Part shown: positions 2,767 to 63,917 of the stretch, piece after piece | Layout: each line of letters opens with the position of its first letter | How positions within the stretch are numbered: position 1 is the first letter of the stretch | NCBI GenBank assembly: GCA_964570525.1 | Contig: CAZMYO010000007.1 | Span: forward strand, 1-63,917 | Reading direction: 5' to 3' | DNA from: an uncultured Gammaproteobacteria bacterium | Lineage (GTDB): Bacteria; Patescibacteriota; Patescibacteriia; Magasanikbacterales; GWA2-37-8 | Length of the DNA stretch: 63,917 bases | Notes under the pieces: model-generated | Told to the model about the DNA's origin: nothing | The model's database searches: none | What the model saw: the letters and a program-made list of their open reading frames with translations, nothing else | Position numbers and translations under genes: made by a program

Positions 2767-3729
2767 CTAAATACTCCCAACAAATAAATCGATCAGGAGT
2801 GACTGATCAGCCTGGCCGGTTTTTGTCTTAATATCAATATCAAGCAGGCGCTCGTACATTTGCTCAATTTTCCGGAGCGGATAGCGCTTGGCAATTGCCA
2901 TATTTTTTCTGGCCACAAACGGGTGGATGCCTAATTTTTTAGCCAGAATTTCACTGGAGACGGAGCCTTCCCGCTCCAGGGCATCGGCCATTTCCAAAAT
3001 AATTCTAAATTGCCATACCAGCAAACCAAACAAGCGCGACTCTTCTTCGCCCTGGCGGCGCTGTTCTTCTAATAATTTAAAGGCCAGCTTGTGGTTGCCG
3101 GCAACAATCGCGTCAACCATGTTAAAAGCATTGTCATCCACCTTCTCTTCCAAAAAAAGCTGGACAGCGGCAAAAGTAATAGCGCCGTTTCTCTGGTACG
3201 CAACTAGCTGATCGATGGTTGAATTTAAAAACCAGAGATCGTGTCCGCCGTTTTGGCAAAGATACGCGAGGGCTTGGTCTTCAATTTTTCCACCGCGCCC
3301 CTCGACTTCATTCTTTACCCAAGCCGATAATTTCGCTCCGGTAAGCGGGGCGAATTCCTGCGCGTACTTTTCTTTCGCCAAAATTCCTTGGAGCTCTTTG
3401 GCTTCTTTAACTTTACTCAAAGCCTCGCCCTGCCAAAAAATAATAATATTGCTCTCCGGCAGGCGATGGTTTTTAACGCGATCGGCAAGTTCTTGAAGCA
3501 GTTCTTTGTCGCTACTCGCTAAAACGTTATTCACAACCACCAAACGCCGCTCGGCCAAAAAAGGCGCGGCGACCATCTCACTCAAAATCCGCCCCGCTTT
3601 TTCTTTTTGCCCGTCTAGCAAAACCACGTTGTAGCCTTGCGGGTCGCGGTCGCGTTTGAACTTTTCAATAGATTGTCTAAGATACTGGCGGCTACGGAAA
3701 GTGTCGGCGCCGTGGAGAAAGATGATCAT
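2767..3729 (-). CDS. holA: DNA polymerase III delta subunit (HolA)
   Basis: 320-aa ORF beginning MIIFLHGADTFRSRQYL. Size and layout match clamp-loader delta. The call is by overall resemblance, not a strict motif. Confidence 0.7.
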   Translation of the reverse strand: MIIFLHGADTFRSRQYLRQSIEKFKRDRDPQGYNVVLLDGQKEKAGRILSEMVAAPFLAERRLVVVNNVLASSDKELLQELADRVKNHRLPESNIIIFWQGEALSKVKEAKELQGILAKEKYAQEFAPLTGAKLSAWVKNEVEGRGGKIEDQALAYLCQNGGHDLWFLNSTIDQLVAYQRNGAITFAAVQLFLEEKVDDNAFNMVDAIVAGNHKLAFKLLEEQRRQGEEESRLFGLLVWQFRIILEMADALEREGSVSSEILAKKLGIHPFVARKNMAIAKRYPLRKIEQMYERLLDIDIKTKTGQADQSLLIDLFVGSI

Positions 3730-3831
3730 AGCGTACTATAATATCTACTGTAGTCATTCTTACATCATAGTACTGTTTCGAGGGAGGAAAATCAACCCCG
3801 CACCAGACGCTTCATGTCGGTGCGTGGCGAG

Positions 3832-3886
3832 CTTAAAAAGAAAAGGCCCTCGAGCGAACGCACCGAAATGTGAACGCCCGAGGGCC
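3832..3886 (-). terminator. rho-independent terminator of the 3918..4151 orphan
   Basis: On the minus strand, GGCCCTCG...CGAGGGCC stem followed by TTTTCTTTTT. Confidence 0.65.
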
Positions 3887-3917
3887 CAAGTGACCAGACG
3901 AGAGAGTGCCGAGCGAC

Positions 3918-4151
3918 CTAGCTTTCCAGCTCCGCCACCCCCAGGAGGAAGAACCCGATGAAAATATGCGCGACCTCGTCGGATAGCAGAACCACGAAAG
4001 CGTTCTTCCCCGTGTTCCTTTGGGGAAGCAGGCTCCTGGCCAGCGCTTTTACTTTTCCCGGGTTATTATAGAGCACCAGACGTTCCTCCTCGGTGAGAAG
4101 GCCGCGGAGCATCTCCACAAAGCCAATTTCTGCTGGATTGCGATGTGCCAT
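3918..4151 (-). CDS. hypothetical small protein (77 aa, GC-rich orphan)
   Basis: ATG at 4151 lies 7 nt after AAGGAGG, giving MAHRNPAEIG.... The track ORF extends to 4211 without an SD site. Confidence 0.55.
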   Translation of the reverse strand: MAHRNPAEIGFVEMLRGLLTEEERLVLYNNPGKVKALARSLLPQRNTGKNAFVVLLSDEVAHIFIGFFLLGVAELES

Positions 4152-6147: not shown

Positions 6148-8862
6148 TTAGTTTTTCTCTCCCCAGTTTTTTACAATACTTACATGCGCTTCAATCGGTA
6201 CCCGAAGCTTGGCAACGTTTTCCATAACCTCCTTAACGATTTTACCGACCTCATCGGCCAATGATTTTTCTACTTCTAAAACCAGCTCATCGTGCACCTG
6301 CAAGATCATCTTAATCTTATCACTTTTGACTTTTGACTTTTGACTTTTGACTCTCCCATACACTTCTATCATACCCATCTTCATTAGATCGGCGGCTGTG
6401 CCCTGCACGGGGTGGTTAATGGCCATGCGCTCGGCAGCGCTCCGCAATTGAAAATTTTTTGAATTCAGTTCGGGAAGGTAACGACGACGACCGAATAGTG
6501 TCTCACAGTAGCCTTCTTTTTTGGTGAATTCGAGCGTTCGATCAATGTATTTTTTTACGCCGCTAAATTCTCTAAAATATTTCTCGATAAAAGCCTTGGC
6601 TTCGGCATGGCTAATCTCGGCCCGCCAACTCAATCCATAAGTACCCATGCCATACAGAATACCGAAGTTAACTTCTTTAGCGGCGCGGCGCATTTCCTTG
6701 GTAACCTTATCAAGCGGGACGTTGTTGATTGCCGCCGCTGTCGCCCGGTGAATGTCTTCGCCTCGCTCAAAAATCTCAATCATTTTTTTATCTTCCGCCA
6801 AGGAAGCCACGATACGAAGTTCAATTTGCGAATAGTCGGCGGAGACCAAAACATTCCCCGGCTCGGCGATAAAAGCCTCTCGAACTTCACGCCCAAGAGC
6901 CGTACGGATGGGAATATTTTGTAAATTGGGGTCGGAGCTGCTAAGTCTTCCGGTGGCGGTAACAACCTGGTTAAAAGTGGTGTGGATCCGACCGGTGGTT
7001 TTGTTGATAAGGGTAGGGATAACGTCAATATAGGTGTTTTGGAGCTTGCTAAGCTCTCGGTGTATTTCAATCTCATCGATAATGGGGTGAAGCCCGCGCA
7101 TTTTCTCGAGCTGCTCGGCCGACGTGGAAAGACCGGTTTTACCGCGCTTGATTCCCTCCACCGGAATATCCAGTTTCTCAAAAAGAATTTCCCGAAGCTG
7201 GAGCGGCGACGAAATGTTGAACTCTTGGCCAGCCAGCCGATAAATTTTCTCACTTACCTTTTTTATTTCCCCAGCTACCCGCCGCGACAGTTCAGCGAGC
7301 TTCTTTTCGTCAACCGCTACGCCATTAAGTTCCATCTCGGCCAAGACGGGGATGAGCGGCATCTCGACATTGGAAAACAGACCAAGGTTGTCTACTTTTA
7401 CAAGCTCGTGCCGCAGTTTTTCGCCGGCCTCGCTAATAAGCTCAAGCTCAACAGCGAGCGTCTTCGCGTCCAGGCCAAAAAGACTTTCTTGGCCGCTTCC
7501 CACTTTTAATTCTTTCCCCAAAATTTTTAAAACCACGCTTCCCATATCGTGCGCTCGGCTGCCGGGATTTAAGAGATACGAAGCGACCATTACATCAAAG
7601 AGTGTGTTTTTTACCACCACCTTTTCCCTGGCCATAATTTTAAAGAGTTGCTTCAGGTTATGGCCAACCAGCTCGATGTCTTTTTCCTCAAAAAGCTTGA
7701 GACAGGTTTTCACAGCCTCATCCTTCGCGTAAAAAGTTTCACGCCCCACCACCAACACCAGGCCGGTGAGATGACTGGTAAATAAATCGCCTCCCTCGGT
7801 AATGGCGCGGCCGGCAAATGATTTTTTCTCCTGAACTAATTTTATAAGTCGAATGGCTTCGGCAGAGGTTTTTATTTCGGAAAACTTGAGCTCCTGTTTG
7901 GGCAAGCGCCTCGGCGCTTTGGACTTTTTTTCTTCCGCTTCTATTTCCCCGCCTTTGCCCGGGACGCGTTTTAAAAGTGAAACAAATTCTAGTTTCTGAA
8001 ATAGTTTAGCCACCTTGGCGCGATCAAAATCTTTAAGGCGGCAGTCCTCCAGTTTAAAACGCAGGTCCGGCACATCGCAGTCAATGGCGGCAAGAGACTT
8101 GCTCATCAAAGCGCTCTCTTTGCCCGCTTCAAGCTTCTTAATTATTCCATCTTTAAATTTTGTTCGGAGTTCGGAGTTCGGAGTTCGGAGTTGTTTATAA
8201 ATTTCTTCAAGGCCGCCGACTTTTTGAATCAGCTCACTCCCGATTTTTTCTCCGATGCCGGGAACGCCGGGAATGTTGTCGGAGGCGTCACCGCGCAAAG
8301 CCTTGTAATCCACCATCAACTCCGGCCCAAAGCCATATCGCTGGGTAACAGCCGCGGCATCATACACCACCACATCACTCAACCCTTTGCGCAAGGTATA
8401 TACTTTCACGCCGTCCTTCACGAGCTGTAGCGTGTCCATGTCTCCGGTTACGATAAAGACTTCCAATTTATCGCTTTCGACTTTCGACTTTCGACTTTCG
8501 ACTTGTTCTACAATCGTCCCAATTACATCGTCCGCCTCATAGCCTTTCTTTTCATAAATAGGAAGATCAAAAACGCGTACCAAATCGTGCACGGTTGGAA
8601 TCTGATCGTAGAGTTCTTGGTCGGCTTTAACGCGAGTGGCTTTGTAGGCCTTAAATTTTTCCAAGCGCGCGGTGGAACCGCCGGCAACGTCAAAAGTTAC
8701 GGCAATGTGGGTGGGCCGCAGATCCTTCCATACTTTAAGAAGCATGCTGGCAAAACCATAAACCGCGTTTACGAGGTGGCCGTCTTTAGTCGTCATGGGC
8801 GGAAGAGCGTGGTAGGCCCGGTGGATGATGGCGTTGCCGTCTATTATGATGAGTCTTTCCAT
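6148..8862 (-). CDS. polA: DNA polymerase I
   Basis: 5'-nuclease N-terminus (IIDGNAIIHRAYHALPP) and family A motifs DYSQIELR, RRAAKEVNFGILYGM and QVHDELVLE. Start ATG 8862 (MERLIII) was chosen because the longer track ORF runs into tRNA-derived sequence. Confidence 0.95.
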   Translation of the reverse strand: MERLIIIDGNAIIHRAYHALPPMTTKDGHLVNAVYGFASMLLKVWKDLRPTHIAVTFDVAGGSTARLEKFKAYKATRVKADQELYDQIPTVHDLVRVFDLPIYEKKGYEADDVIGTIVEQVESRKSKVESDKLEVFIVTGDMDTLQLVKDGVKVYTLRKGLSDVVVYDAAAVTQRYGFGPELMVDYKALRGDASDNIPGVPGIGEKIGSELIQKVGGLEEIYKQLRTPNSELRTKFKDGIIKKLEAGKESALMSKSLAAIDCDVPDLRFKLEDCRLKDFDRAKVAKLFQKLEFVSLLKRVPGKGGEIEAEEKKSKAPRRLPKQELKFSEIKTSAEAIRLIKLVQEKKSFAGRAITEGGDLFTSHLTGLVLVVGRETFYAKDEAVKTCLKLFEEKDIELVGHNLKQLFKIMAREKVVVKNTLFDVMVASYLLNPGSRAHDMGSVVLKILGKELKVGSGQESLFGLDAKTLAVELELISEAGEKLRHELVKVDNLGLFSNVEMPLIPVLAEMELNGVAVDEKKLAELSRRVAGEIKKVSEKIYRLAGQEFNISSPLQLREILFEKLDIPVEGIKRGKTGLSTSAEQLEKMRGLHPIIDEIEIHRELSKLQNTYIDVIPTLINKTTGRIHTTFNQVVTATGRLSSSDPNLQNIPIRTALGREVREAFIAEPGNVLVSADYSQIELRIVASLAEDKKMIEIFERGEDIHRATAAAINNVPLDKVTKEMRRAAKEVNFGILYGMGTYGLSWRAEISHAEAKAFIEKYFREFSGVKKYIDRTLEFTKKEGYCETLFGRRRYLPELNSKNFQLRSAAERMAINHPVQGTAADLMKMGMIEVYGRVKSQKSKVKSDKIKMILQVHDELVLEVEKSLADEVGKIVKEVMENVAKLRVPIEAHVSIVKNWGEKN
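6324..6351. repeat. perfect heptanucleotide tandem repeat (ttttgac x4) inside polA
   Basis: Read directly from the sequence. It encodes KSQKSKVKSDK just upstream of motif C (QVHDE). Confidence 0.9.
8162..8192. repeat. perfect heptanucleotide tandem repeat (gttcgga x4 plus partial) inside polA
   Basis: Read directly from the sequence. It encodes QLRTPNSELRTK in the 5'-nuclease region. Confidence 0.9.
8474..8504. repeat. perfect heptanucleotide tandem repeat (ctttcga x4 plus partial) inside polA
   Basis: Read directly from the sequence. It encodes VESRKSKVESDK in the 5'-nuclease domain. Confidence 0.9.
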
Positions 8863-9188: not shown

Positions 9189-9683
9189 ATGACGACGCGG
9201 AAATCAATTCGGGAGCAGGCGGACGCCACAGCAAACTTGATTCGCGAATTTTGCCTGGAGCAACGCGCGCTGTGGTGTCAAGTTCCTGAACGGGCCCTTT
9301 TGAGCGACGGACGACATGGCTGGAATGATCAGCTTCGGCTGGCCTACATCGCTATGCTTTGGAGACCGCTCGACAACTCCAACTCACCGCTCTGGTATAG
9401 AGACGTGAGCTTTCGGCTAGCTGTTGATTTGGCTTCTGGCAGGCTCGTCGAGCTTGTTGGCGCCTATAATCGTGGCTCTTCGGCTAGCGAAGACAATATA
9501 CTGCGGCTGGCCTCCTGTCTAGATTCGATTGATGCGAAAAGGGTGCTTGCTCGCTTGAAATGCACTGTTAAGAGCGCAGTGGCGAGCTACCTGGGTCCAC
9601 ATGCGAAAGAGGCGAGGCAGCGTAACATCGAGAGTCATCACCCGCGTATAGAAGAGTTCCTGCGCCGCACGCAGGCCAAATAA
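9189..9683 (+). CDS. hypothetical protein (164 aa orphan)
   Basis: ATG lies after AAGGAGC (caaaggagcaagccATG). No recognisable motif. A terminator hairpin follows. Confidence 0.6.
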   Translation: MTTRKSIREQADATANLIREFCLEQRALWCQVPERALLSDGRHGWNDQLRLAYIAMLWRPLDNSNSPLWYRDVSFRLAVDLASGRLVELVGAYNRGSSASEDNILRLASCLDSIDAKRVLARLKCTVKSAVASYLGPHAKEARQRNIESHHPRIEEFLRRTQAK

Positions 9684-9701
9684 ATCGCGAGTCATCCTAT
9701 T

Positions 9702-9736
9702 GCAGTGTGTTAGGAACACACTGCTTTTCTTTTTTA
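9702..9736 (+). terminator. rho-independent terminator
   Basis: gcagtgtgt-tagga-acacactgc hairpin followed by ttttcttttttat. Confidence 0.7.
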
Positions 9737-11179
9737 TCTTACATACCCAAGCGGGTTCACGCGCTGGCCGTTTATCTGCACTTCAAAATGAATGTGAATG
9801 CCGGTAACACCACGAACCTTCCCGGTGTTTCCCATTAAAGCAACGGGTTGGCCGGCTTCAACATAGTCTCCGGGGGAAACCAAGAGTTGAGAGTTGTGTC
9901 CGTAAAGAGTCTTGACCCCGCCGCCATGGTTTATAATTACGTAACAGCCATATCCACGATTCCAGCCACATTGAGAAACCTCCACCACACCGGCTTTGGC
10001 GGCGTAATTTGGCGTCTGCCAGGGACCGGCGATATCAAGCGCGCGATGCCTAAAGGTAAAATATTGGGTAATGGCGCGGGCGCCGCTTGGCCACACGAAA
10101 CCGGAAGCTGAAGGGAGGAAACCGGCCGAAGGAGGAGCGGCCACGCGGCTAGCCAAGTTGCGCAAAGTTTGAGGGGCTCGGGTAATTCCTCTCTCTTTGG
10201 GTTTAACGCCGCCGGGAATCATTATTCTGTCCCCCACCAAAAGATCTCTGCCGTCTTCTTTAAGATGATTAAATCTAATGACGTCTTCTGCTTTTGCTTC
10301 ATACAAAGAAGCGATTTTCTTGATGGTTTCTTTCTTCTTTACCGTATGCATGATGCCGGTGGTAGGCGGAATTTTCAATGTATTTCCCGGTTTAATAATT
10401 GACCTAAGGTTGAGATTGTTTTCCCACATGATGGTGGGGATGCTGATACCGAAATTGTAGGCGATCCCGCCCAGGGAGTCGCCCGGCTCCACAATATATT
10501 CAATTATCCGATTTCTGGCAGAGCCCAAAGCAGAGCCGGGAATTAAAAATGGTTTGCTCAACGCGGTGCCGCCAGCTACTATCCCAGCCAATTCGTTGGT
10601 GGGAAACAGTGGAGTGCCGCCAGCTCCCACGAATTGGGTTTCTAGGGCGCCAATTTTCCACGATGGTGTCGCGTAGACCTCTTGTTTATCGCTTGAAATT
10701 ATCTCTTCGGTTTCAATCTCTTCGTCGGCGCCCAAAAATCCATAAATAATAGACTTTTGTCCGGCTGAAGCCAGGCCGGCCTTGGCAAGCAGCGTAGTCT
10801 CCGTAAGCCCGATCAAAAGCAGAACTAAAAAAACGACGCTTACCAAAAAATCCCGCTTAAAAAGTTTTTCCCGGATATTAGTTAAACCCGTTTTTCTAAC
10901 AAGATAGCTTGCCTTATAGTGAAGATAGATAACAAATCGCCCGGGAATACCAAAAATTTTGGCTAAAACAAAATAAATTCTGGCGCCAATCCACCAGAAA
11001 ATTCGTTTAAAATAAATGAGGATACGTAATAATTTTAGCAGTACTCTATACTTCATACCCTCTAGTTTCTTTCTACCTTTGACCCCGTCACCATAGCACC
11101 ATAGATTTCGGCTTTTCGTCTTAATTAAGCCATCAACCTGAACTTGGCTTCTGCTCCAGCTTTTTCGTTTGTTTGGCAA
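9734..11179 (-). CDS. LysM-domain M23 family peptidoglycan metallopeptidase
   Basis: One TM anchor and two LysM-like repeats (YIVEPGDSLGGIAYNFGI.., HTVKKKETIKKIASLYEA..). M23 motifs are YVIINHGGGVKTLYGHNS and GIHIHFEV. The start is uncertain (TTG 11179 or ATG 11056). Confidence 0.85.
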   Translation of the reverse strand: MPNKRKSWSRSQVQVDGLIKTKSRNLWCYGDGVKGRKKLEGMKYRVLLKLLRILIYFKRIFWWIGARIYFVLAKIFGIPGRFVIYLHYKASYLVRKTGLTNIREKLFKRDFLVSVVFLVLLLIGLTETTLLAKAGLASAGQKSIIYGFLGADEEIETEEIISSDKQEVYATPSWKIGALETQFVGAGGTPLFPTNELAGIVAGGTALSKPFLIPGSALGSARNRIIEYIVEPGDSLGGIAYNFGISIPTIMWENNLNLRSIIKPGNTLKIPPTTGIMHTVKKKETIKKIASLYEAKAEDVIRFNHLKEDGRDLLVGDRIMIPGGVKPKERGITRAPQTLRNLASRVAAPPSAGFLPSASGFVWPSGARAITQYFTFRHRALDIAGPWQTPNYAAKAGVVEVSQCGWNRGYGCYVIINHGGGVKTLYGHNSQLLVSPGDYVEAGQPVALMGNTGKVRGVTGIHIHFEVQINGQRVNPLGYVR

Positions 11180-37994: not shown

Positions 37995-38414
37995 TTATTT
38001 TAACTTTTTGAGGTTTCTTTTAAGAAATTCAGCGGTAGCTTGGACTACCTGCTTTTTTACTTCCGGATCAGAGGCAGCGACCCAGTTAGCAAAATTATAC
38101 AATTTAACATTGTCTACTTCTATCCACTTACCATTTTTGTATAAAAAAACTAACAATGTCGTCATAGCAATTCGCTTGTTTCCATTTTGGAATGGGTGGT
38201 TTTTAATCATCAGATAAAACAGCATCGCTGACTTTTCAGTCAGCCCTTTATATAAAACTTTATTATCAAATTTTAAAAAGGGAGTAATGATGCAGCTCTC
38301 CAATTTATTCGGAAAACGCGTATTAAATTCAGGAATCGGTTCATCCCATTTCATTGTCTTCCTAGCCAAATCATAGGCTATGTATTCTACCTCTTTTAGA
38401 GTAATATCTTTCAT
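37995..38414 (-). CDS. doc: Doc (death-on-curing) / Fic family toxin
   Basis: Doc-type Fic motif HPFQNGNKR in a 139-aa protein. It lies 5 nt downstream of a small HTH gene. Confidence 0.85.
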   Translation of the reverse strand: MKDITLKEVEYIAYDLARKTMKWDEPIPEFNTRFPNKLESCIITPFLKFDNKVLYKGLTEKSAMLFYLMIKNHPFQNGNKRIAMTTLLVFLYKNGKWIEVDNVKLYNFANWVAASDPEVKKQVVQATAEFLKRNLKKLK

Positions 38415-53068: not shown

Positions 53069-53090
53069 TAGGCGTTAACAACCCGCCAAA

Positions 53091-53162
53091 GGCGGATTGT
53101 TACTGCTAGTGAAAACATGTTCGTCCGCTGAGGCGAACTCCACGTTTTCAAGCCAGTAACAA
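53091..53162. repeat. long-hairpin repeat, copy A (GGCGGATTGTTACTGCTAGT ... TTTTCAAGCCAGTAACAA)
   Basis: The shared ~25-nt 5' and ~20-nt 3' ends match 53329-53381. It folds into a ~30-bp stem and lies in the predicted 5' UTR of the 3D-domain gene. Confidence 0.75.
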
Positions 53163-53203
53163 AAAGTACCTTATTGAGGTACTGTCGCTTCTAGGCAACG
53201 AAT

Positions 53204-53233
53204 TAGTATATCACAAAACCGGTTCTTTGTCAA
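53204..53233 (-). promoter_or_regulatory. sigma70-like promoter (TTGACA-N18-TATACT) for the 3D-domain gene
   Basis: Read on the minus strand. Confidence 0.5.
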
Positions 53234-53328
53234 GGCCTTAGAGGAGTTTTTTGGCTAATTTTAGCTATTTATGTAGGTAACCACTCTGGCTTTTGAGGTA
53301 AAAAGAATCCTCCTTCGCTAAAGCTTCG

Positions 53329-53381
53329 GCGGATTGTTACTGCTAGTAAAAATATATCCATATTTTCAAGCCAGTAACAAT
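53329..53381. repeat. long-hairpin repeat, copy B
   Basis: ggcggattgttactgctagtaaaaatatatccatattttcaagccagtaacaa. Confidence 0.75.
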
Positions 53382-53387
53382 AAGAAA

Positions 53388-53409
53388 GGCCCCCGATGTT
53401 CCGGGGGCC
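53388..53409 (-). terminator. rho-independent terminator of the 913-aa gene
   Basis: On the minus strand, GGCCCCCGGAACATCGGGGGCC followed by TTTCTTATT. Confidence 0.7.
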
Positions 53410-53474
53410 AAGACGCTCCGAAGGAGCGTTAGTGGGGAAAATTACAAGTTATTTAGTTAGGACTGCGGTCCTTC

Positions 53475-56216
53475 TTACTTTTTTCGGGCCGCACCCAGCT
53501 TGTTGTCTACCGCATACTTCGCCTCGACTTTCATCGAGGCCAAGCCAATCGCGCGCATGTGCTCCATGGGGATGGTCATCTTGAAATACCGTCCCGGCTG
53601 GGTATAGACACAGAGGTCCACACCGGCCGTCCGCGGCAAACCGCCATAGGCGAGTTCGGTTGCTGACACTCGCTGTGTGCACGGTTTTTGGTCGATGAAC
53701 CGACCCATGTTATCACCGCTCTTATCAACGGCCAAGTACGACTCGTGCGTATGGCCTGCCTTGATAACATCGGCGTCCTGATTACGCGCCTTATTTAAGA
53801 TGGCGTTTGGTTCGTGAGTAAGCCCGAGCCGGTACGTTTTCTGGACCAGGAGCTTGCCATCATGCCCCATACCGTATCGTTCAATAATTCCTTGCCGGCC
53901 AACGCTGTAACCGCCCAAATGCACAACCATTTCTGGCTTGACTGCATCTGACTGGTAGTACTGCGGTTCACCGCCGGCCAGGATCTTCAGAGGGAACGGC
54001 TTGCGCCACTCCGCCGGAAAATCTTCGTGCGCGGTTTTCAGCGCCAAGAGCCAATCCTCAAAGGCATTATGCTCTTGAATACCGACATCACGCACGGCGT
54101 TGGCAAAGTGATTTCCTTCCAACACGGCCAAAATGTCCATCAGCCGGGTCGGACTAAGATTAAGAATGCTCAAGAACTTCTCTTTAAGGAACAGGAGAAC
54201 AGCTCTCATGGTGAGCTTCATGTTCTCGTTTGCTCCGCCCATCATGTCGTTAAGGAAGAAAAGAGAAGTTTTCAGCACGGCGTTATAGTCCGTCGTGTCC
54301 GTGGCCACCAGGCGCGCGGATACTTCTTTAGCTTCCTCCATCCACTGACGACGGAATTTAGTCGCTTCTTTCCAGGCCTTAGAATTGGCTTCGGCCAAAT
54401 CACCCAAGTTAAGGATGCCGCCGAGATAAACCTTTTGCCCGTACAGCTCGAGCGGATTCTTCATGAGCTGTTTAACCATGGCAAAGGTACCAAGCGTACC
54501 CATCGGATCCATCTCGGGAGAATTCAGGTGATTATCCGAGTCGTCCTGGCTCATTACGGCCTTAAACGGCTCCAGCACCTGCTTATTACGGAACAGCCGG
54601 TACATAATGGGTTCAACGGACATCAGTCCATGCCGGTGTTTACGAATCATGGTCACACCAGACACCGACCTTTTGGAATTCCGAATGAACACCGGATGAG
54701 AAGCGCTGGCAATCGGTTTGCCACCGCGCGTCCGGCCCGGCTTCTCTCGGTTAAGATACTTAGCGATGTTATCCTGCGGTTCAAAAGGCATACCGGCCAG
54801 AAACAGCACGTGCTTCACGCCGTCACTGTTGCCGGTATAAAAAGTATTGACGTGCTGCATGCGAATTTCTTCCGCGGTAATATTGAGCCGCTGCCACCGA
54901 GCAAGGAATTCCCCGTGGTGTCCGCTCTCCATTACCACGTCAATATCGCTAGCCGAAGCTTCCAGCTCCGTCAACACCGCCGCGAGGTTTTCACGGTAAT
55001 CGGTCATGAGTCCATGATACGATTCCGCCAGCCGACGCACGCGCCGCATCGGTTGCCAGGTGCGTCCGCGGTCGTGGGCGTAGTCAATGACGAGCGAGCC
55101 GAAGACAATGACTTCCGGCTTGGTGACGATCCGGATGTCGTGCTTGCCTCCAAGCTCGTAAAACCGCTTATACATCTGGCGGACATGCTCGGCCACGCGA
55201 CGCTGGTACGCCGGGCTCGTTTCCGGTTCACGATAGTTCTTGAACTCTTCCGCGAGCTTTTCATTTTTAGCCGTGAGGCGCTCGACCTTACTTTTGATAA
55301 GCTCAATCTCTTCTTTACACTTCTTGATTTCTGCGTCAAGCGCGTCACGTTCGTCCTTTTTGCCCACGACCTTACTCAAGAGCTTTCGTTCCGCGGTCAG
55401 GGTATTCAAGTTATTGACGAGGCCATGTTCCTTCTTACCAAGAAGGCGCTTTACCGCCGCGAGCTCCGCGTCGATTTCTTGGAGACGCTTTTCGTTTCCC
55501 GCCTCCTTGAAAGCCTTCCGCTCAGTTTCGAACTCGCCCTGTTTGGCGATGAGGGCGATATCGGCTTTGACTTCGGCGATCTCTCGATTGGTAGCCGCGA
55601 CGCGTTTTTTGGCGCGTTCCTCCACCTGCTTGGCGAGTTTGGCTTCAAGTTTGCGCAGCCGATCCTGAAGGTCGGTTTCCTTGAGCTTGCCCAAGCCATG
55701 GAGCGCTTTTTGCAGGTTTTTGATTTCCTCTTCCAGACTTTTCTGGGAGGCCGCCACCTTTACCTTGGCCGACTGAACAATGACGCGAAGCATGCGTTCG
55801 CAGTTGCTGTGGAAGTCATCGGAATCAACCGAGTAAACGATTTTGACCTTGGGCAACGCCGCGCGGAACATTCCGAGCAACTCATCTTGGATCTTCATGA
55901 GTTCGTTGAAAATCCAGTGAACGTGCTCGTGCCGCGGGACATCTTCGAGGTGCTTGAGCATCTCTTCTTCCGTGCGGTTATAGAACGCCACGCGGTCGGC
56001 GAGAATGCCGGGGCGATGGACGCTCGTGAGGCCGTCCAGGAGAACACCGGTGAGATCCGGCGTCTTTTGGAGGTGCGCGATGAGCGTCTTGACATCTTCG
56101 GCGTCATAGTACTCGGTCCCGGGCGAAAGCTCGCTCACGTGAGCGACGCAGTCCACGACCGAAAGGTCGCAGAGATCCTTGAGCTCCTCTTCGGGATCCT
56201 TCTTCTTGTCCGACAT
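53475..56216 (-). CDS. 913-aa coiled-coil protein with a C-terminal calcineurin-like metallophosphoesterase motif set (GC-rich orphan)
   Basis: Ordered motifs are DSDNH, LGDLAEA, LEGNHF and AGHTHES in the C-terminal ~350 aa. About 190 aa of K/E/L/A-rich heptad-like sequence lies near residues 150-345. The 756-aa plus-strand ORF 54027..56297 is treated as a shadow. Confidence 0.7.
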   Translation of the reverse strand: MSDKKKDPEEELKDLCDLSVVDCVAHVSELSPGTEYYDAEDVKTLIAHLQKTPDLTGVLLDGLTSVHRPGILADRVAFYNRTEEEMLKHLEDVPRHEHVHWIFNELMKIQDELLGMFRAALPKVKIVYSVDSDDFHSNCERMLRVIVQSAKVKVAASQKSLEEEIKNLQKALHGLGKLKETDLQDRLRKLEAKLAKQVEERAKKRVAATNREIAEVKADIALIAKQGEFETERKAFKEAGNEKRLQEIDAELAAVKRLLGKKEHGLVNNLNTLTAERKLLSKVVGKKDERDALDAEIKKCKEEIELIKSKVERLTAKNEKLAEEFKNYREPETSPAYQRRVAEHVRQMYKRFYELGGKHDIRIVTKPEVIVFGSLVIDYAHDRGRTWQPMRRVRRLAESYHGLMTDYRENLAAVLTELEASASDIDVVMESGHHGEFLARWQRLNITAEEIRMQHVNTFYTGNSDGVKHVLFLAGMPFEPQDNIAKYLNREKPGRTRGGKPIASASHPVFIRNSKRSVSGVTMIRKHRHGLMSVEPIMYRLFRNKQVLEPFKAVMSQDDSDNHLNSPEMDPMGTLGTFAMVKQLMKNPLELYGQKVYLGGILNLGDLAEANSKAWKEATKFRRQWMEEAKEVSARLVATDTTDYNAVLKTSLFFLNDMMGGANENMKLTMRAVLLFLKEKFLSILNLSPTRLMDILAVLEGNHFANAVRDVGIQEHNAFEDWLLALKTAHEDFPAEWRKPFPLKILAGGEPQYYQSDAVKPEMVVHLGGYSVGRQGIIERYGMGHDGKLLVQKTYRLGLTHEPNAILNKARNQDADVIKAGHTHESYLAVDKSGDNMGRFIDQKPCTQRVSATELAYGGLPRTAGVDLCVYTQPGRYFKMTIPMEHMRAIGLASMKVEAKYAVDNKLGAARKK

Positions 56217-56404
56217 GGGACACCTTTGCCTTCTCTGCCTTTTCGGCAGTTTGTTGGTTGTTTAGCACAATTGTTAAAGAGCCTAATTATATTGTAAGAA
56301 TAGAACATCTATATTCATTTGTCTAGAAAAGTCAAGGGGAGCCAACAACTGGAAAAAATTTGGCAGTTGAGCTATAATGGCGATATTATCAGAGATTTTG
56401 TTAT

Positions 56405-63266: not shown

Positions 63267-63917
63267 CTACTTGCCGCCCGCCTTACCCTTCGGCGATAGG
63301 AGCAGCGAAGGGTTTGGCGCCGTGATCACCAGGTTGCCGTTCTTGCCGGCTTCCTCGTAGATCTTCGGCATCTTGGTCTGCATGTCGAATTGGAGGTACT
63401 CCGGGTTGCGCCGGAGCGCCGCCCCGATCTGGTTGATCTTGACCGCCTCGACTTGGCCTTCCTTCTCCGACAGCTGGCGGCGCATGTCCATGGTCTTGGT
63501 CTCCGCCTCGACTTTCTCGCGTTCGGCGATGGCCTTGTCCTTGAGGACGCCCTGGACCGCGCGCTCGGTGTTGGCGTGGTTCATCTCCTCCGGGAACTGC
63601 AGGTTGGAGAGAATGACCTCGTTGACCTGCACCGCCTTCTCCTTCTTCTCCATGCTCTCGACGAAGCGCTTGCGGATGGTGACGAGGATCTCCTCGCGCT
63701 GGTCGTTGACGTCGTTGGCGCGGTAGGGCGAGACTGTCTCGCGGACCGCCTCACCGATGGCCGGCCGGACGTAGGTGTCATAGAGCTGCTGGCTGGAAAC
63801 GGTGTTGTCCTTGCCAGCCGAGAGCGTCGTCAGCAGCCTCTCGACCGAGGCGTCCGTGCAGTCGGCGCCGTAGCGGATGTAGACGTCCAGGCCGAACTGC
63901 ACACCGTCCTTGGTCAG
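63267..63917 (-). CDS. SPFH/band-7 (prohibitin-like) domain protein, 5' end beyond the window (GC-rich)
   Basis: The frame is open to the window edge. SPFH-like core (..GLDVYIRY.., EVILSNLQFPEE) is followed by a coiled coil and a Lys/Gly tail. Confidence 0.65.
   Translation of the reverse strand: MTKDGVQFGLDVYIRYGADCTDASVERLLTTLSAGKDNTVSSQQLYDTYVRPAIGEAVRETVSPYRANDVNDQREEILVTIRKRFVESMEKKEKAVQVNEVILSNLQFPEEMNHANTERAVQGVLKDKAIAEREKVEAETKTMDMRRQLSEKEGQVEAVKINQIGAALRRNPEYLQFDMQTKMPKIYEEAGKNGNLVITAPNPSLLLSPKGKAGGK

Follow-up and report, generated by a model that had tools for sequence, protein, structure and literature searches.

The window described here is the whole 63,917 nt stretch of contig CAZMYO010000007.1 (assembly GCA_964570525.1), from a bacterium that the Genome Taxonomy Database (GTDB) lineage places in the Patescibacteriota. 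Its minus strand carries an open reading frame (ORF) of 913 amino acids (aa), situated between a 3D-domain gene and a PBP1A gene (Table 1). The C-terminal part of the encoded protein can be assigned, with high confidence, to the calcineurin-like metallophosphoesterase superfamily on the basis of its sequence motifs and predicted fold. The N-terminal part is modeled as a second conserved globular domain from which a long helical hairpin projects. An initial annotation, made from the sequence alone, had described the gene as a GC-rich orphan that fuses a coiled coil to an Mre11/SbcD-type phosphoesterase.

Table 1. Features of the 913-aa gene and its flanks (positions are those of the window)
Feature	Positions	Strand	Basis and details
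Whole gene, 913-aa ORF, unnamed Patescibacteria-specific family	53475..56216	minus	ORF listing; 34 full-length homologues
N-terminal globular segment N1, aa 1-135	55812..56216	minus	DSSP assignment of the model, alignment, family conservation
Helical (coiled-coil) hairpin, aa 132-359, apex near aa 240	55140..55823	minus	model, conservation, heptad analysis
N2, second half of the N-terminal globular domain, aa 360-552	54561..55139	minus	alignment, model
Basic glycine-rich loop 494-GRTRGGKP-501	54714..54737	minus	alignment; pLDDT below 50
C-terminal calcineurin-like metallophosphoesterase domain, aa 553-883	53568..54560	minus	Foldseek, weak Pfam matches
Motif I DSDNH, aa 559-563	54528..54542	minus	alignments; D561/H563 invariant
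Motif II LGDLAEA, aa 604-610	54387..54407	minus	alignments; G605/D606 invariant, E609/W615 at 85% or more
Helical insertion between motifs II and III, aa 610-690, ~80 aa	54147..54389	minus	model helices
Motif III LEGNHF, aa 699-704	54105..54122	minus	alignments; N702/H703 invariant
Motif IV THEPN, aa 800-804	53805..53819	minus	alignments; H801/P803 invariant
Motif V AGHTHES, aa 820-826	53739..53759	minus	alignments; G821/H822/H824 invariant
C-terminal long helix and short basic tail, aa 884-913	53478..53567	minus	model, family alignment
Intrinsic terminator of the gene	53388..53409	minus	9-bp stem with 8 G-C pairs, then T run
Weak promoter-like site upstream of the gene	56297..56325	minus	TAGACA-17-TATTCT, 9/12 consensus matches only

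Five metallophosphoesterase motifs, DxH, GDxxE, GNH, H and GHxH, are present in the C-terminal domain in the order in which they occur in the superfamily. The four that the initial annotation had listed in canonical order are all located in the translation, but it had missed the fifth, the THEPN of motif IV. An alignment of 31 divergent family members shows invariant columns at D561, H563, G605, D606, N702, H703, H801, P803, G821, H822 and H824; the remaining invariant columns are Q338, G435, G576 and R862. G701 is part of the conserved GNH. A 44-sequence alignment and an alignment of the C-terminal domain show the same pattern, with motif residues invariant or at 85% or more, down to ~18% identity. 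The family consensus is GDxAEANS at motif II and GNHxx(D/N) at motif III, the acidic residue after GNH being displaced to +2 or +3. D606 and N702 are 96 residues apart, in agreement with the ~90 residues first estimated between these motifs, and the model fills the stretch with helices (613-616, 625-638, 644-658 and 666-687). As every catalytic residue is invariant, the C-terminal domain is very probably an active, two-metal phosphoesterase.

Structure prediction agrees with this assignment. The AlphaFold2 model, for which 27 homologues were used, has a mean predicted local distance difference test (pLDDT) of 78 and a predicted template modeling score (pTM) of 0.75, and the predicted fold of the C-terminal domain is a beta-sandwich. 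Foldseek comparison with BFVD, a set of predicted viral structures, gives 8 matches (E 3e-6 to 1e-3, probability 0.99-1.0; the best at E 3e-6 and probability 1.0). Each is a phage protein of the phosphoesterase type (calcineurin-like, metallo-dependent phosphatase or 'DNA polymerase II small subunit'). Against the PDB, the top matches not due to the coiled coil are YydB, LpxH, PolD DP1 and Pol delta p50, with alignments of 380-424 columns; the YydB match (9a6c) is to an integrative model and not to an experimental structure. Matches to designer proteins of the SAKe type were set aside as artefacts of a repeated 'GHTH' peptide. At the sequence level, 5 of 11 family members match Pfam Metallophos_2 below threshold (best E 6e-4), and the distant member P0060 scores 21.6 bits against the Metallophos gathering cut-off of 21.5. 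Sequence profiles never reached a solved phosphoesterase, and for this reason superfamily membership is argued from the motifs together with the predicted fold. The calcineurin-like assignment made at the outset is thus borne out by a complete set of catalytic motifs conserved family-wide: the fold is present in the model, the motif residues are invariant, and no characterized family with the same architecture was found.

The N-terminal 550 residues have an unusual predicted organization. In the model, aa 1-131 form a beta-alpha-beta-alpha-beta unit; the chain passes from a strand at 125-129 into helices 132-239, turns near residue 240, returns through helices 242-359 and enters strands 362-380, after which the globular region continues to approximately residue 552. 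Because the modeled strands run into and out of the helices, the ~230-residue antiparallel helical hairpin is predicted to be inserted in a conserved N-terminal globular domain (aa 1-131 and 360-552). The single-chain fusion of coiled coil and enzyme that was proposed originally is upheld, but not a simple N-terminal placement of the coiled coil, as in the model the hairpin leaves and re-enters the N-terminal domain. The hairpin consists of long helices with four short breaks in the model; it is 43-50% charged and poor in Pro and Gly. Heptad periodicity is significant for residues 253-336 (z about 3.9) and weaker for 141-252. The heptad-like stretch noted earlier at ~150-345 thus corresponds to a region modeled as helical and charged, with a clear heptad signal only in its second half.

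Variation within the protein is greatest in the hairpin, which measures ~218 aa in the subfamily of the window and 107-125 aa in most of the distant relatives, whereas conservation in its flanks (aa 20-160 and 320-550) equals that of the enzyme domain. Conserved residues in the first segment are S28-E29, D61-G62, R68-P69, P122 and D134, and the second segment has the motifs DYAH(D/S)R, ESGHHG and PFE.Q. A CxxC zinc hook is present in the helical region of 0 of 72 family sequences, and the apex sequence is poorly conserved. The initial annotation had seen no Walker A motif, and the 913-aa protein indeed has no match to [AG]xxxxGK[ST] and no ABC ATPase head. Outside the coiled coil, Pfam, NCBIfam and PADLOC scans give no ABC or SMC model matches. 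The one Walker A-like segment that recurs in the family is the basic loop GRTRGGKP, in which R495 and K500 are present at 85% or more; it does match the Walker A regular expression in three relatives (P0021, P0033 and P0035). However, in the window protein Pro replaces the final Ser/Thr, and the loop is a disordered, low-confidence segment between helices that lacks the strand-loop-helix context of a P-loop. It may bind phosphate, another anion or nucleic acid.

The secondary structure of the N-terminal domain, b1-a1-b2-a2-b3-[hairpin]-b4-b5-b6-a4-b7-b8, follows the order of the phosphoesterase fold. Conserved acidic and His residues are found at the strand ends in positions that resemble motifs I to V (S28-E29, D61-G62, D131-x-D133-D134, D378-Y-A-H381 and S431-G-H433-H434). 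On these two grounds the N-terminal domain could be a degenerate duplicate of the phosphoesterase fold, the third helix of which has been expanded into the hairpin, although we lean slightly against this origin.

The label of orphan does not hold: among 5.8 billion proteins searched there are 34 other full-length relatives at 45-79% identity, all of them unnamed or annotated as 'hypothetical', and the named sources are all Patescibacteria/Parcubacteria. When a profile of aa 345-905 was run exhaustively with HMMER against 1.84 billion cluster representatives, it yielded only 41 clusters at 50% identity, which go down to 18-34% identity and have lengths of 735-1191 aa; it reached no canonical phosphoesterase. 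A further family-profile search returns only the same 35 close members. In a scan of GTDB species the close relatives are labeled 'Patescibacteria group', 'Parcubacteria group Gr01-1014_13' and Candidatus Magasanikbacteria (three genomes), and one distant cluster is likewise labeled Patescibacteria. Pfam, NCBIfam and PHROGs return only coiled-coil noise for the 913-aa protein, and the literature on YydB/YydD and on coiled-coil phosphoesterases in Patescibacteria yielded nothing on the family. With only 41 clusters, Patescibacteria labels and members that are all unnamed or 'hypothetical', the family is rare, restricted to Patescibacteria and previously undescribed. A viral origin was considered and rejected, as there are no relatives in IMG/VR and no tblastn match in 50,697 GenBank phage records. 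No transmembrane segment or signal-like stretch is present in 72 family members.

Some members carry additional segments. Three distant ones (L009, positions 2822-3940; L013, positions 7001-8104; P0060, aa 1-365) have an N-terminal extension of ~365 aa. Its sub-threshold matches are almost all to models of winged-helix DNA-binding domains (TrmB, LexA_DNA_bind, Replic_Relax, Sta1, Lrs14, MCM8 WH and ADAR Z), and on this basis the extension has the appearance of three or four such domains. In P0025, P0027 and P0033 the C-terminal tail is lengthened to 24-67 residues and is rich in K and R.

The neighbors of the gene vary among genomes and are housekeeping genes, including those for tRNA synthetases, TGT, UvrD, NusA, YidC, GroEL and CarAB. 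No mobile-element or defense genes are located nearby in the window or in the nine other distinct loci compared. Three loci (L001, L002 and L004) have a common block with the order aminoacyl-tRNA synthetase-DUF5671-TrpS-gene-TGT(-UvrD). Between genomes, the copies of the gene in this block share 57-74% identity and the flanks 66-88%. The common block, and the lower conservation of the gene than of its housekeeping flanks, fit vertical descent with faster evolution of the gene. In locus L012 an unrelated AAA (PF00004) ATPase gene (positions 9388-10506) starts 6 nt after the stop codon of the homologue, and the two may form an operon; this arrangement is found in that locus only.

The gene has a G+C content (GC) of 0.543 and a third-position G+C content (GC3) of 0.668, compared with 0.472 and 0.524 for the 3D-domain gene and 0.495 and 0.531 for the PBP1A gene. 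It is thus GC-richer than both neighbors, as first reported, but its GC3 is only ~1.4 standard deviations above the mean of all long ORFs in the window. The excess holds across four regions of the gene and most amino acids; AAG accounts for 65% of Lys codons versus 26%, and TTC for 68% of Phe codons versus 27%. A GC excess over the flanks is present in all nine other loci (+0.02 to +0.14) and is located at third codon positions. Ribosomal-protein, EF-G and GroEL genes of the same loci are without the excess: GC3 is 0.529 versus 0.31-0.37 in L001 and 0.738 versus 0.43-0.57 in L010. The G/C excess at synonymous sites is a family-wide trait that includes syntenic, vertically inherited copies. Since it recurs in all nine other loci, it is no mark of local transfer, and together with the gene block common to three genomes it argues against the foreign origin proposed in the initial annotation. 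Candidate causes are selection on mRNA, biased gene conversion and recurrent transfer.

A 756-aa antisense ORF on the plus strand (54027-56297) was considered and rejected as a gene. Across homologues the stop-free antisense length is 755, 669, 450 and so on down to 83 codons; as this length scales with GC3 and the frame is not conserved, the ORF is taken to be a by-product of codon usage. Two other ORFs in the window, both on the minus strand, are compositionally distinct. One at the window end (63267-63902) has a GC of 0.63 and a GC3 of 0.925 and is a far stronger outlier than the 913-aa gene. The other, of 139 aa (37995-38414), has a GC of 0.34 and a GC3 of 0.36 versus a window mean of 0.49 and may be a small, recently acquired gene.

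The promoter-like site upstream of the 913-aa gene lies in a divergent spacer common to this gene and the PBP1A gene. On the other side, 3' of the stop codon, is the strong terminator with the sequence GGCCCCCGG-AACA-TCGGGGGCC-TTTCTT; the gene does have a terminator of its own, as originally described. The spacer downstream (53069-53474), earlier termed repeat-filled, carries two copies of a hairpin element on the minus strand (53091-53162 and 53328-53380) with the layout TTGTTACTGGCTTGAAAA...(variable core)...ACTAGCAGTAACAATCCGCC. One copy follows the terminator. The other belongs to the 5' leader of the 3D-domain gene; a near-consensus promoter (TTGACA-17-TATACT, 53233-53205) lies upstream of this copy, and the leader has a very stable predicted fold (z = -6.5). 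The element has no match in Rfam and occurs nowhere else in the window, nor in related loci; a cis-regulatory leader and a small repeat element are both conceivable.

Membership of the Mre11/SbcD group, which the initial annotation had suggested, was considered and rejected; the motif set is generic to the superfamily, and four tests gave no SbcD or Mre11 support. No match to the SbcD, Mre11, SbcD_C and Mre11_DNA_bind models was obtained in Pfam or NCBIfam at E values up to 10. An hhalign comparison of the C-domain profile with a single E. coli SbcD sequence aligned 33 columns at motif I only, with a probability of 0.5%; SbcD entered this comparison as one sequence, and the SbcD homologues retrieved were all 78% or more identical to the query. 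Mre11 and SbcD chains, many of which have been deposited, are absent from the 50 best fold matches in the PDB. No gene for an SbcC/Rad50-type ABC ATPase partner flanks the gene in the window or in the nine other distinct loci.

The reading of function that we favor, and to which we give an even chance, is that the 913-aa protein is a cytoplasmic, vertically inherited phosphoesterase of a Patescibacteria family that acts on nucleic acid as a nuclease or an end-processing phosphodiesterase. The substrate would be DNA or RNA, hydrolyzed at the C-terminal two-metal site. The helical hairpin would serve in dimerization, or would keep a partner or substrate some way off in the manner of WipA or Rad50, though with no ATPase. 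By analogy, dimerization or capture of a partner or substrate is its most likely role, the precedent being Legionella WipA, a metallophosphoesterase in which an inserted 85-Angstrom antiparallel helical hairpin forms the dimer interface (PMC5454105). The leaning toward nucleic acid comes from the winged-helix-like extensions, the K/R-rich tails, the basic loop GRTRGGKP, and the folds of DP1 and of the phage 'Pol II small subunit' proteins, all of which are soft hints.

Several results weigh against this reading. The winged-helix matches are all below threshold and occur in three distant members and not in the window protein. One of the best fold matches, LpxH, has a lipid-linked nucleotide as its substrate, and no conserved neighbor of the gene indicates DNA metabolism. 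For the window protein itself there is no Pfam match; phmmer and three profile searches (full length, divergent family and C domain) against PDB sequences found no phosphoesterase. The target TM-scores from Foldseek, at 0.3-0.55, are modest, and a second model, of aa 345-905 from 11 sequences, has a pLDDT of only 42. A degenerate duplicate of the phosphoesterase fold in the N-terminal half finds no support from sequence: hhalign of the N domain versus the C domain gives an E value of 0.2-0.3, and Pfam finds nothing on N domains from which the coiled coil was deleted.

A bolder form of the nucleic-acid reading would make the protein an ATP-independent, single-chain functional analogue of Mre11-Rad50/SbcCD that arose in Patescibacteria with their reduced genomes. 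Two phosphoesterase-fold domains would stand in tandem, the first degenerate and with an SMC-like arm in place of its third helix, the second catalytic; the arm would tether or measure DNA ends or hairpins during cleavage, replacing a two-gene, ATP-driven machine. We consider this improbable.

The protein could instead be a phosphodiesterase or pyrophosphatase for small molecules or lipid-linked compounds, in the manner of LpxH, cyclic-nucleotide phosphodiesterases or YfcE, with a hairpin that only oligomerizes or localizes the enzyme. Among the PDB matches LpxH ranks second and shows the highest target TM-score (0.55), the sole NCBIfam phosphoesterase hint is to YfcE (E 0.098), and the weak Pfam matches are to the generic Metallophos_2. 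Motif II (GDLAEAnskaW) is also reminiscent of the GDLFEAW of E. coli LpxH. However, motif III keeps its His (GNH), in place of which LpxH has GNRD, and a protein of 913 aa with an arm of ~15 nm, basic tails and winged-helix extensions in its relatives better suits a macromolecular substrate. LpxH functions in the lipid A pathway, and Patescibacteria are not known to make lipid A. This alternative is unlikely.

It is more doubtful that the protein is a WipA-like protein phosphatase with a hairpin that dimerizes or captures a coiled-coil partner. The solved WipA structure, with its 85-Angstrom inserted hairpin used for dimerization (PMC5454105), is a precedent, and in most of the distant members of the present family the hairpin (~110 aa) is near that of WipA in size. 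Yet the PPP signatures GDxxDRG and GNHE are absent, GDxAEANS and GNHxx(D/N) being found instead, no PPP phosphatase or WipA chain is among the top 50 PDB matches, and the hairpin of WipA is in the catalytic domain whereas here it is in a separate N-terminal domain.

The proposal made in the initial annotation, that the gene is a horizontally acquired defense or anti-plasmid effector working as a single-chain SbcCD/Mre11-Rad50, now appears very unlikely. A codon usage unlike that of the neighbors (GC3 0.668 versus 0.48-0.56, and the AAG preference for Lys) speaks for it, but the GC3 excess is found again in each of the nine other loci, the syntenic, vertically inherited copies among them. The gene's own terminator and the combination of a coiled-coil hairpin with a phosphoesterase also favor it, as does a PADLOC match to LmuB (E 2.8e-6). 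That match is weak, at 24.8 bits; as it is confined to the coiled coil, it was treated as compositional and rejected. The varying housekeeping neighbors, the lack of mobile-element or defense genes near the gene and of relatives in IMG/VR or GenBank phages, and the absence of a Walker A motif, a zinc hook and an SbcD/Mre11 model match all argue against such an effector.

Least credible is a mainly structural or scaffolding coiled-coil protein with a non-catalytic phosphoesterase binding module, as in eukaryotic polymerase B-subunits: Pol delta p50, whose phosphoesterase fold is inactive, ranks with the top PDB matches, and a degenerate version of that fold may also make up the N-terminal domain, but all catalytic and metal-binding residues of the C-terminal domain are invariant to ~18% identity, which is the opposite of the inactivated B-subunits.

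A large share of bacterial diversity belongs to the Patescibacteria, many of whose conserved large proteins have no assigned function. For the present family, the two-metal phosphoesterase assignment, with defined catalytic residues, provides a testable biochemical handle. The predicted helical arm of up to ~15 nm, extending from a second conserved globular domain with no ATPase, is an architecture that has not been described in the superfamily. Should the protein act on DNA, it would illustrate how ends or hairpins can be processed in a minimal genome without SbcCD or Mre11-Rad50. The synonymous-site G/C excess, kept in every genome examined, including vertically inherited syntenic copies, is a puzzle of molecular evolution.

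Comparison with known systems places the family as follows. With the Metallophos and Metallophos_2 superfamily the protein has in common the five motifs in order, a predicted beta-sandwich and phosphoesterase fold matches; it differs in having no Pfam or NCBIfam match, a helical insertion of ~80 aa and a 550-aa N-terminal region with a hairpin. With Mre11/SbcD and Rad50/SbcC it shares a phosphoesterase site with the motif III His and, as predicted, a long antiparallel coiled-coil arm, and a nucleic-acid substrate is plausible. It differs from them in being a single chain without an ABC ATPase head, Walker A motif, zinc hook or capping/SbcD_C domain; the hairpin would resemble the Rad50 arm in topology but with no ATPase head attached.

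The best structural neighbors are PolD DP1, the phage proteins similar to 'DNA polymerase II small subunit', and B. subtilis YydB. DP1 is an Mre11-like 3'-5' exonuclease; YydB itself is, to our knowledge, uncharacterized. The 913-aa protein differs from DP1 and YydB in that it has no adjoining polymerase gene, no detectable sequence similarity to them and no demonstrated OB fold. LpxH, the second-best PDB fold match, also has helices inserted into its phosphoesterase core and a similar motif II (GDxxEA..W), but it is an enzyme of 240 aa in lipid A synthesis with its lid elsewhere and GNRD at motif III, where the 913-aa family has an invariant GNH.

An architectural parallel is WipA, where the metallophosphoesterase and an inserted antiparallel helical hairpin also form one chain (PMC5454105). 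WipA is a PPP-type protein tyrosine phosphatase with its hairpin inside the catalytic domain, whereas in the present family the motifs are not of PPP type and the predicted hairpin, which is up to 2.5 times longer, belongs to a separate N-terminal domain. The catalytic superfamily, and the occurrence of a hairpin in a phosphoesterase, are therefore known. What is new, relative to every library searched, is a Patescibacteria-restricted family in which, with no ATPase or partner, a second globular domain carries an SMC-like arm.

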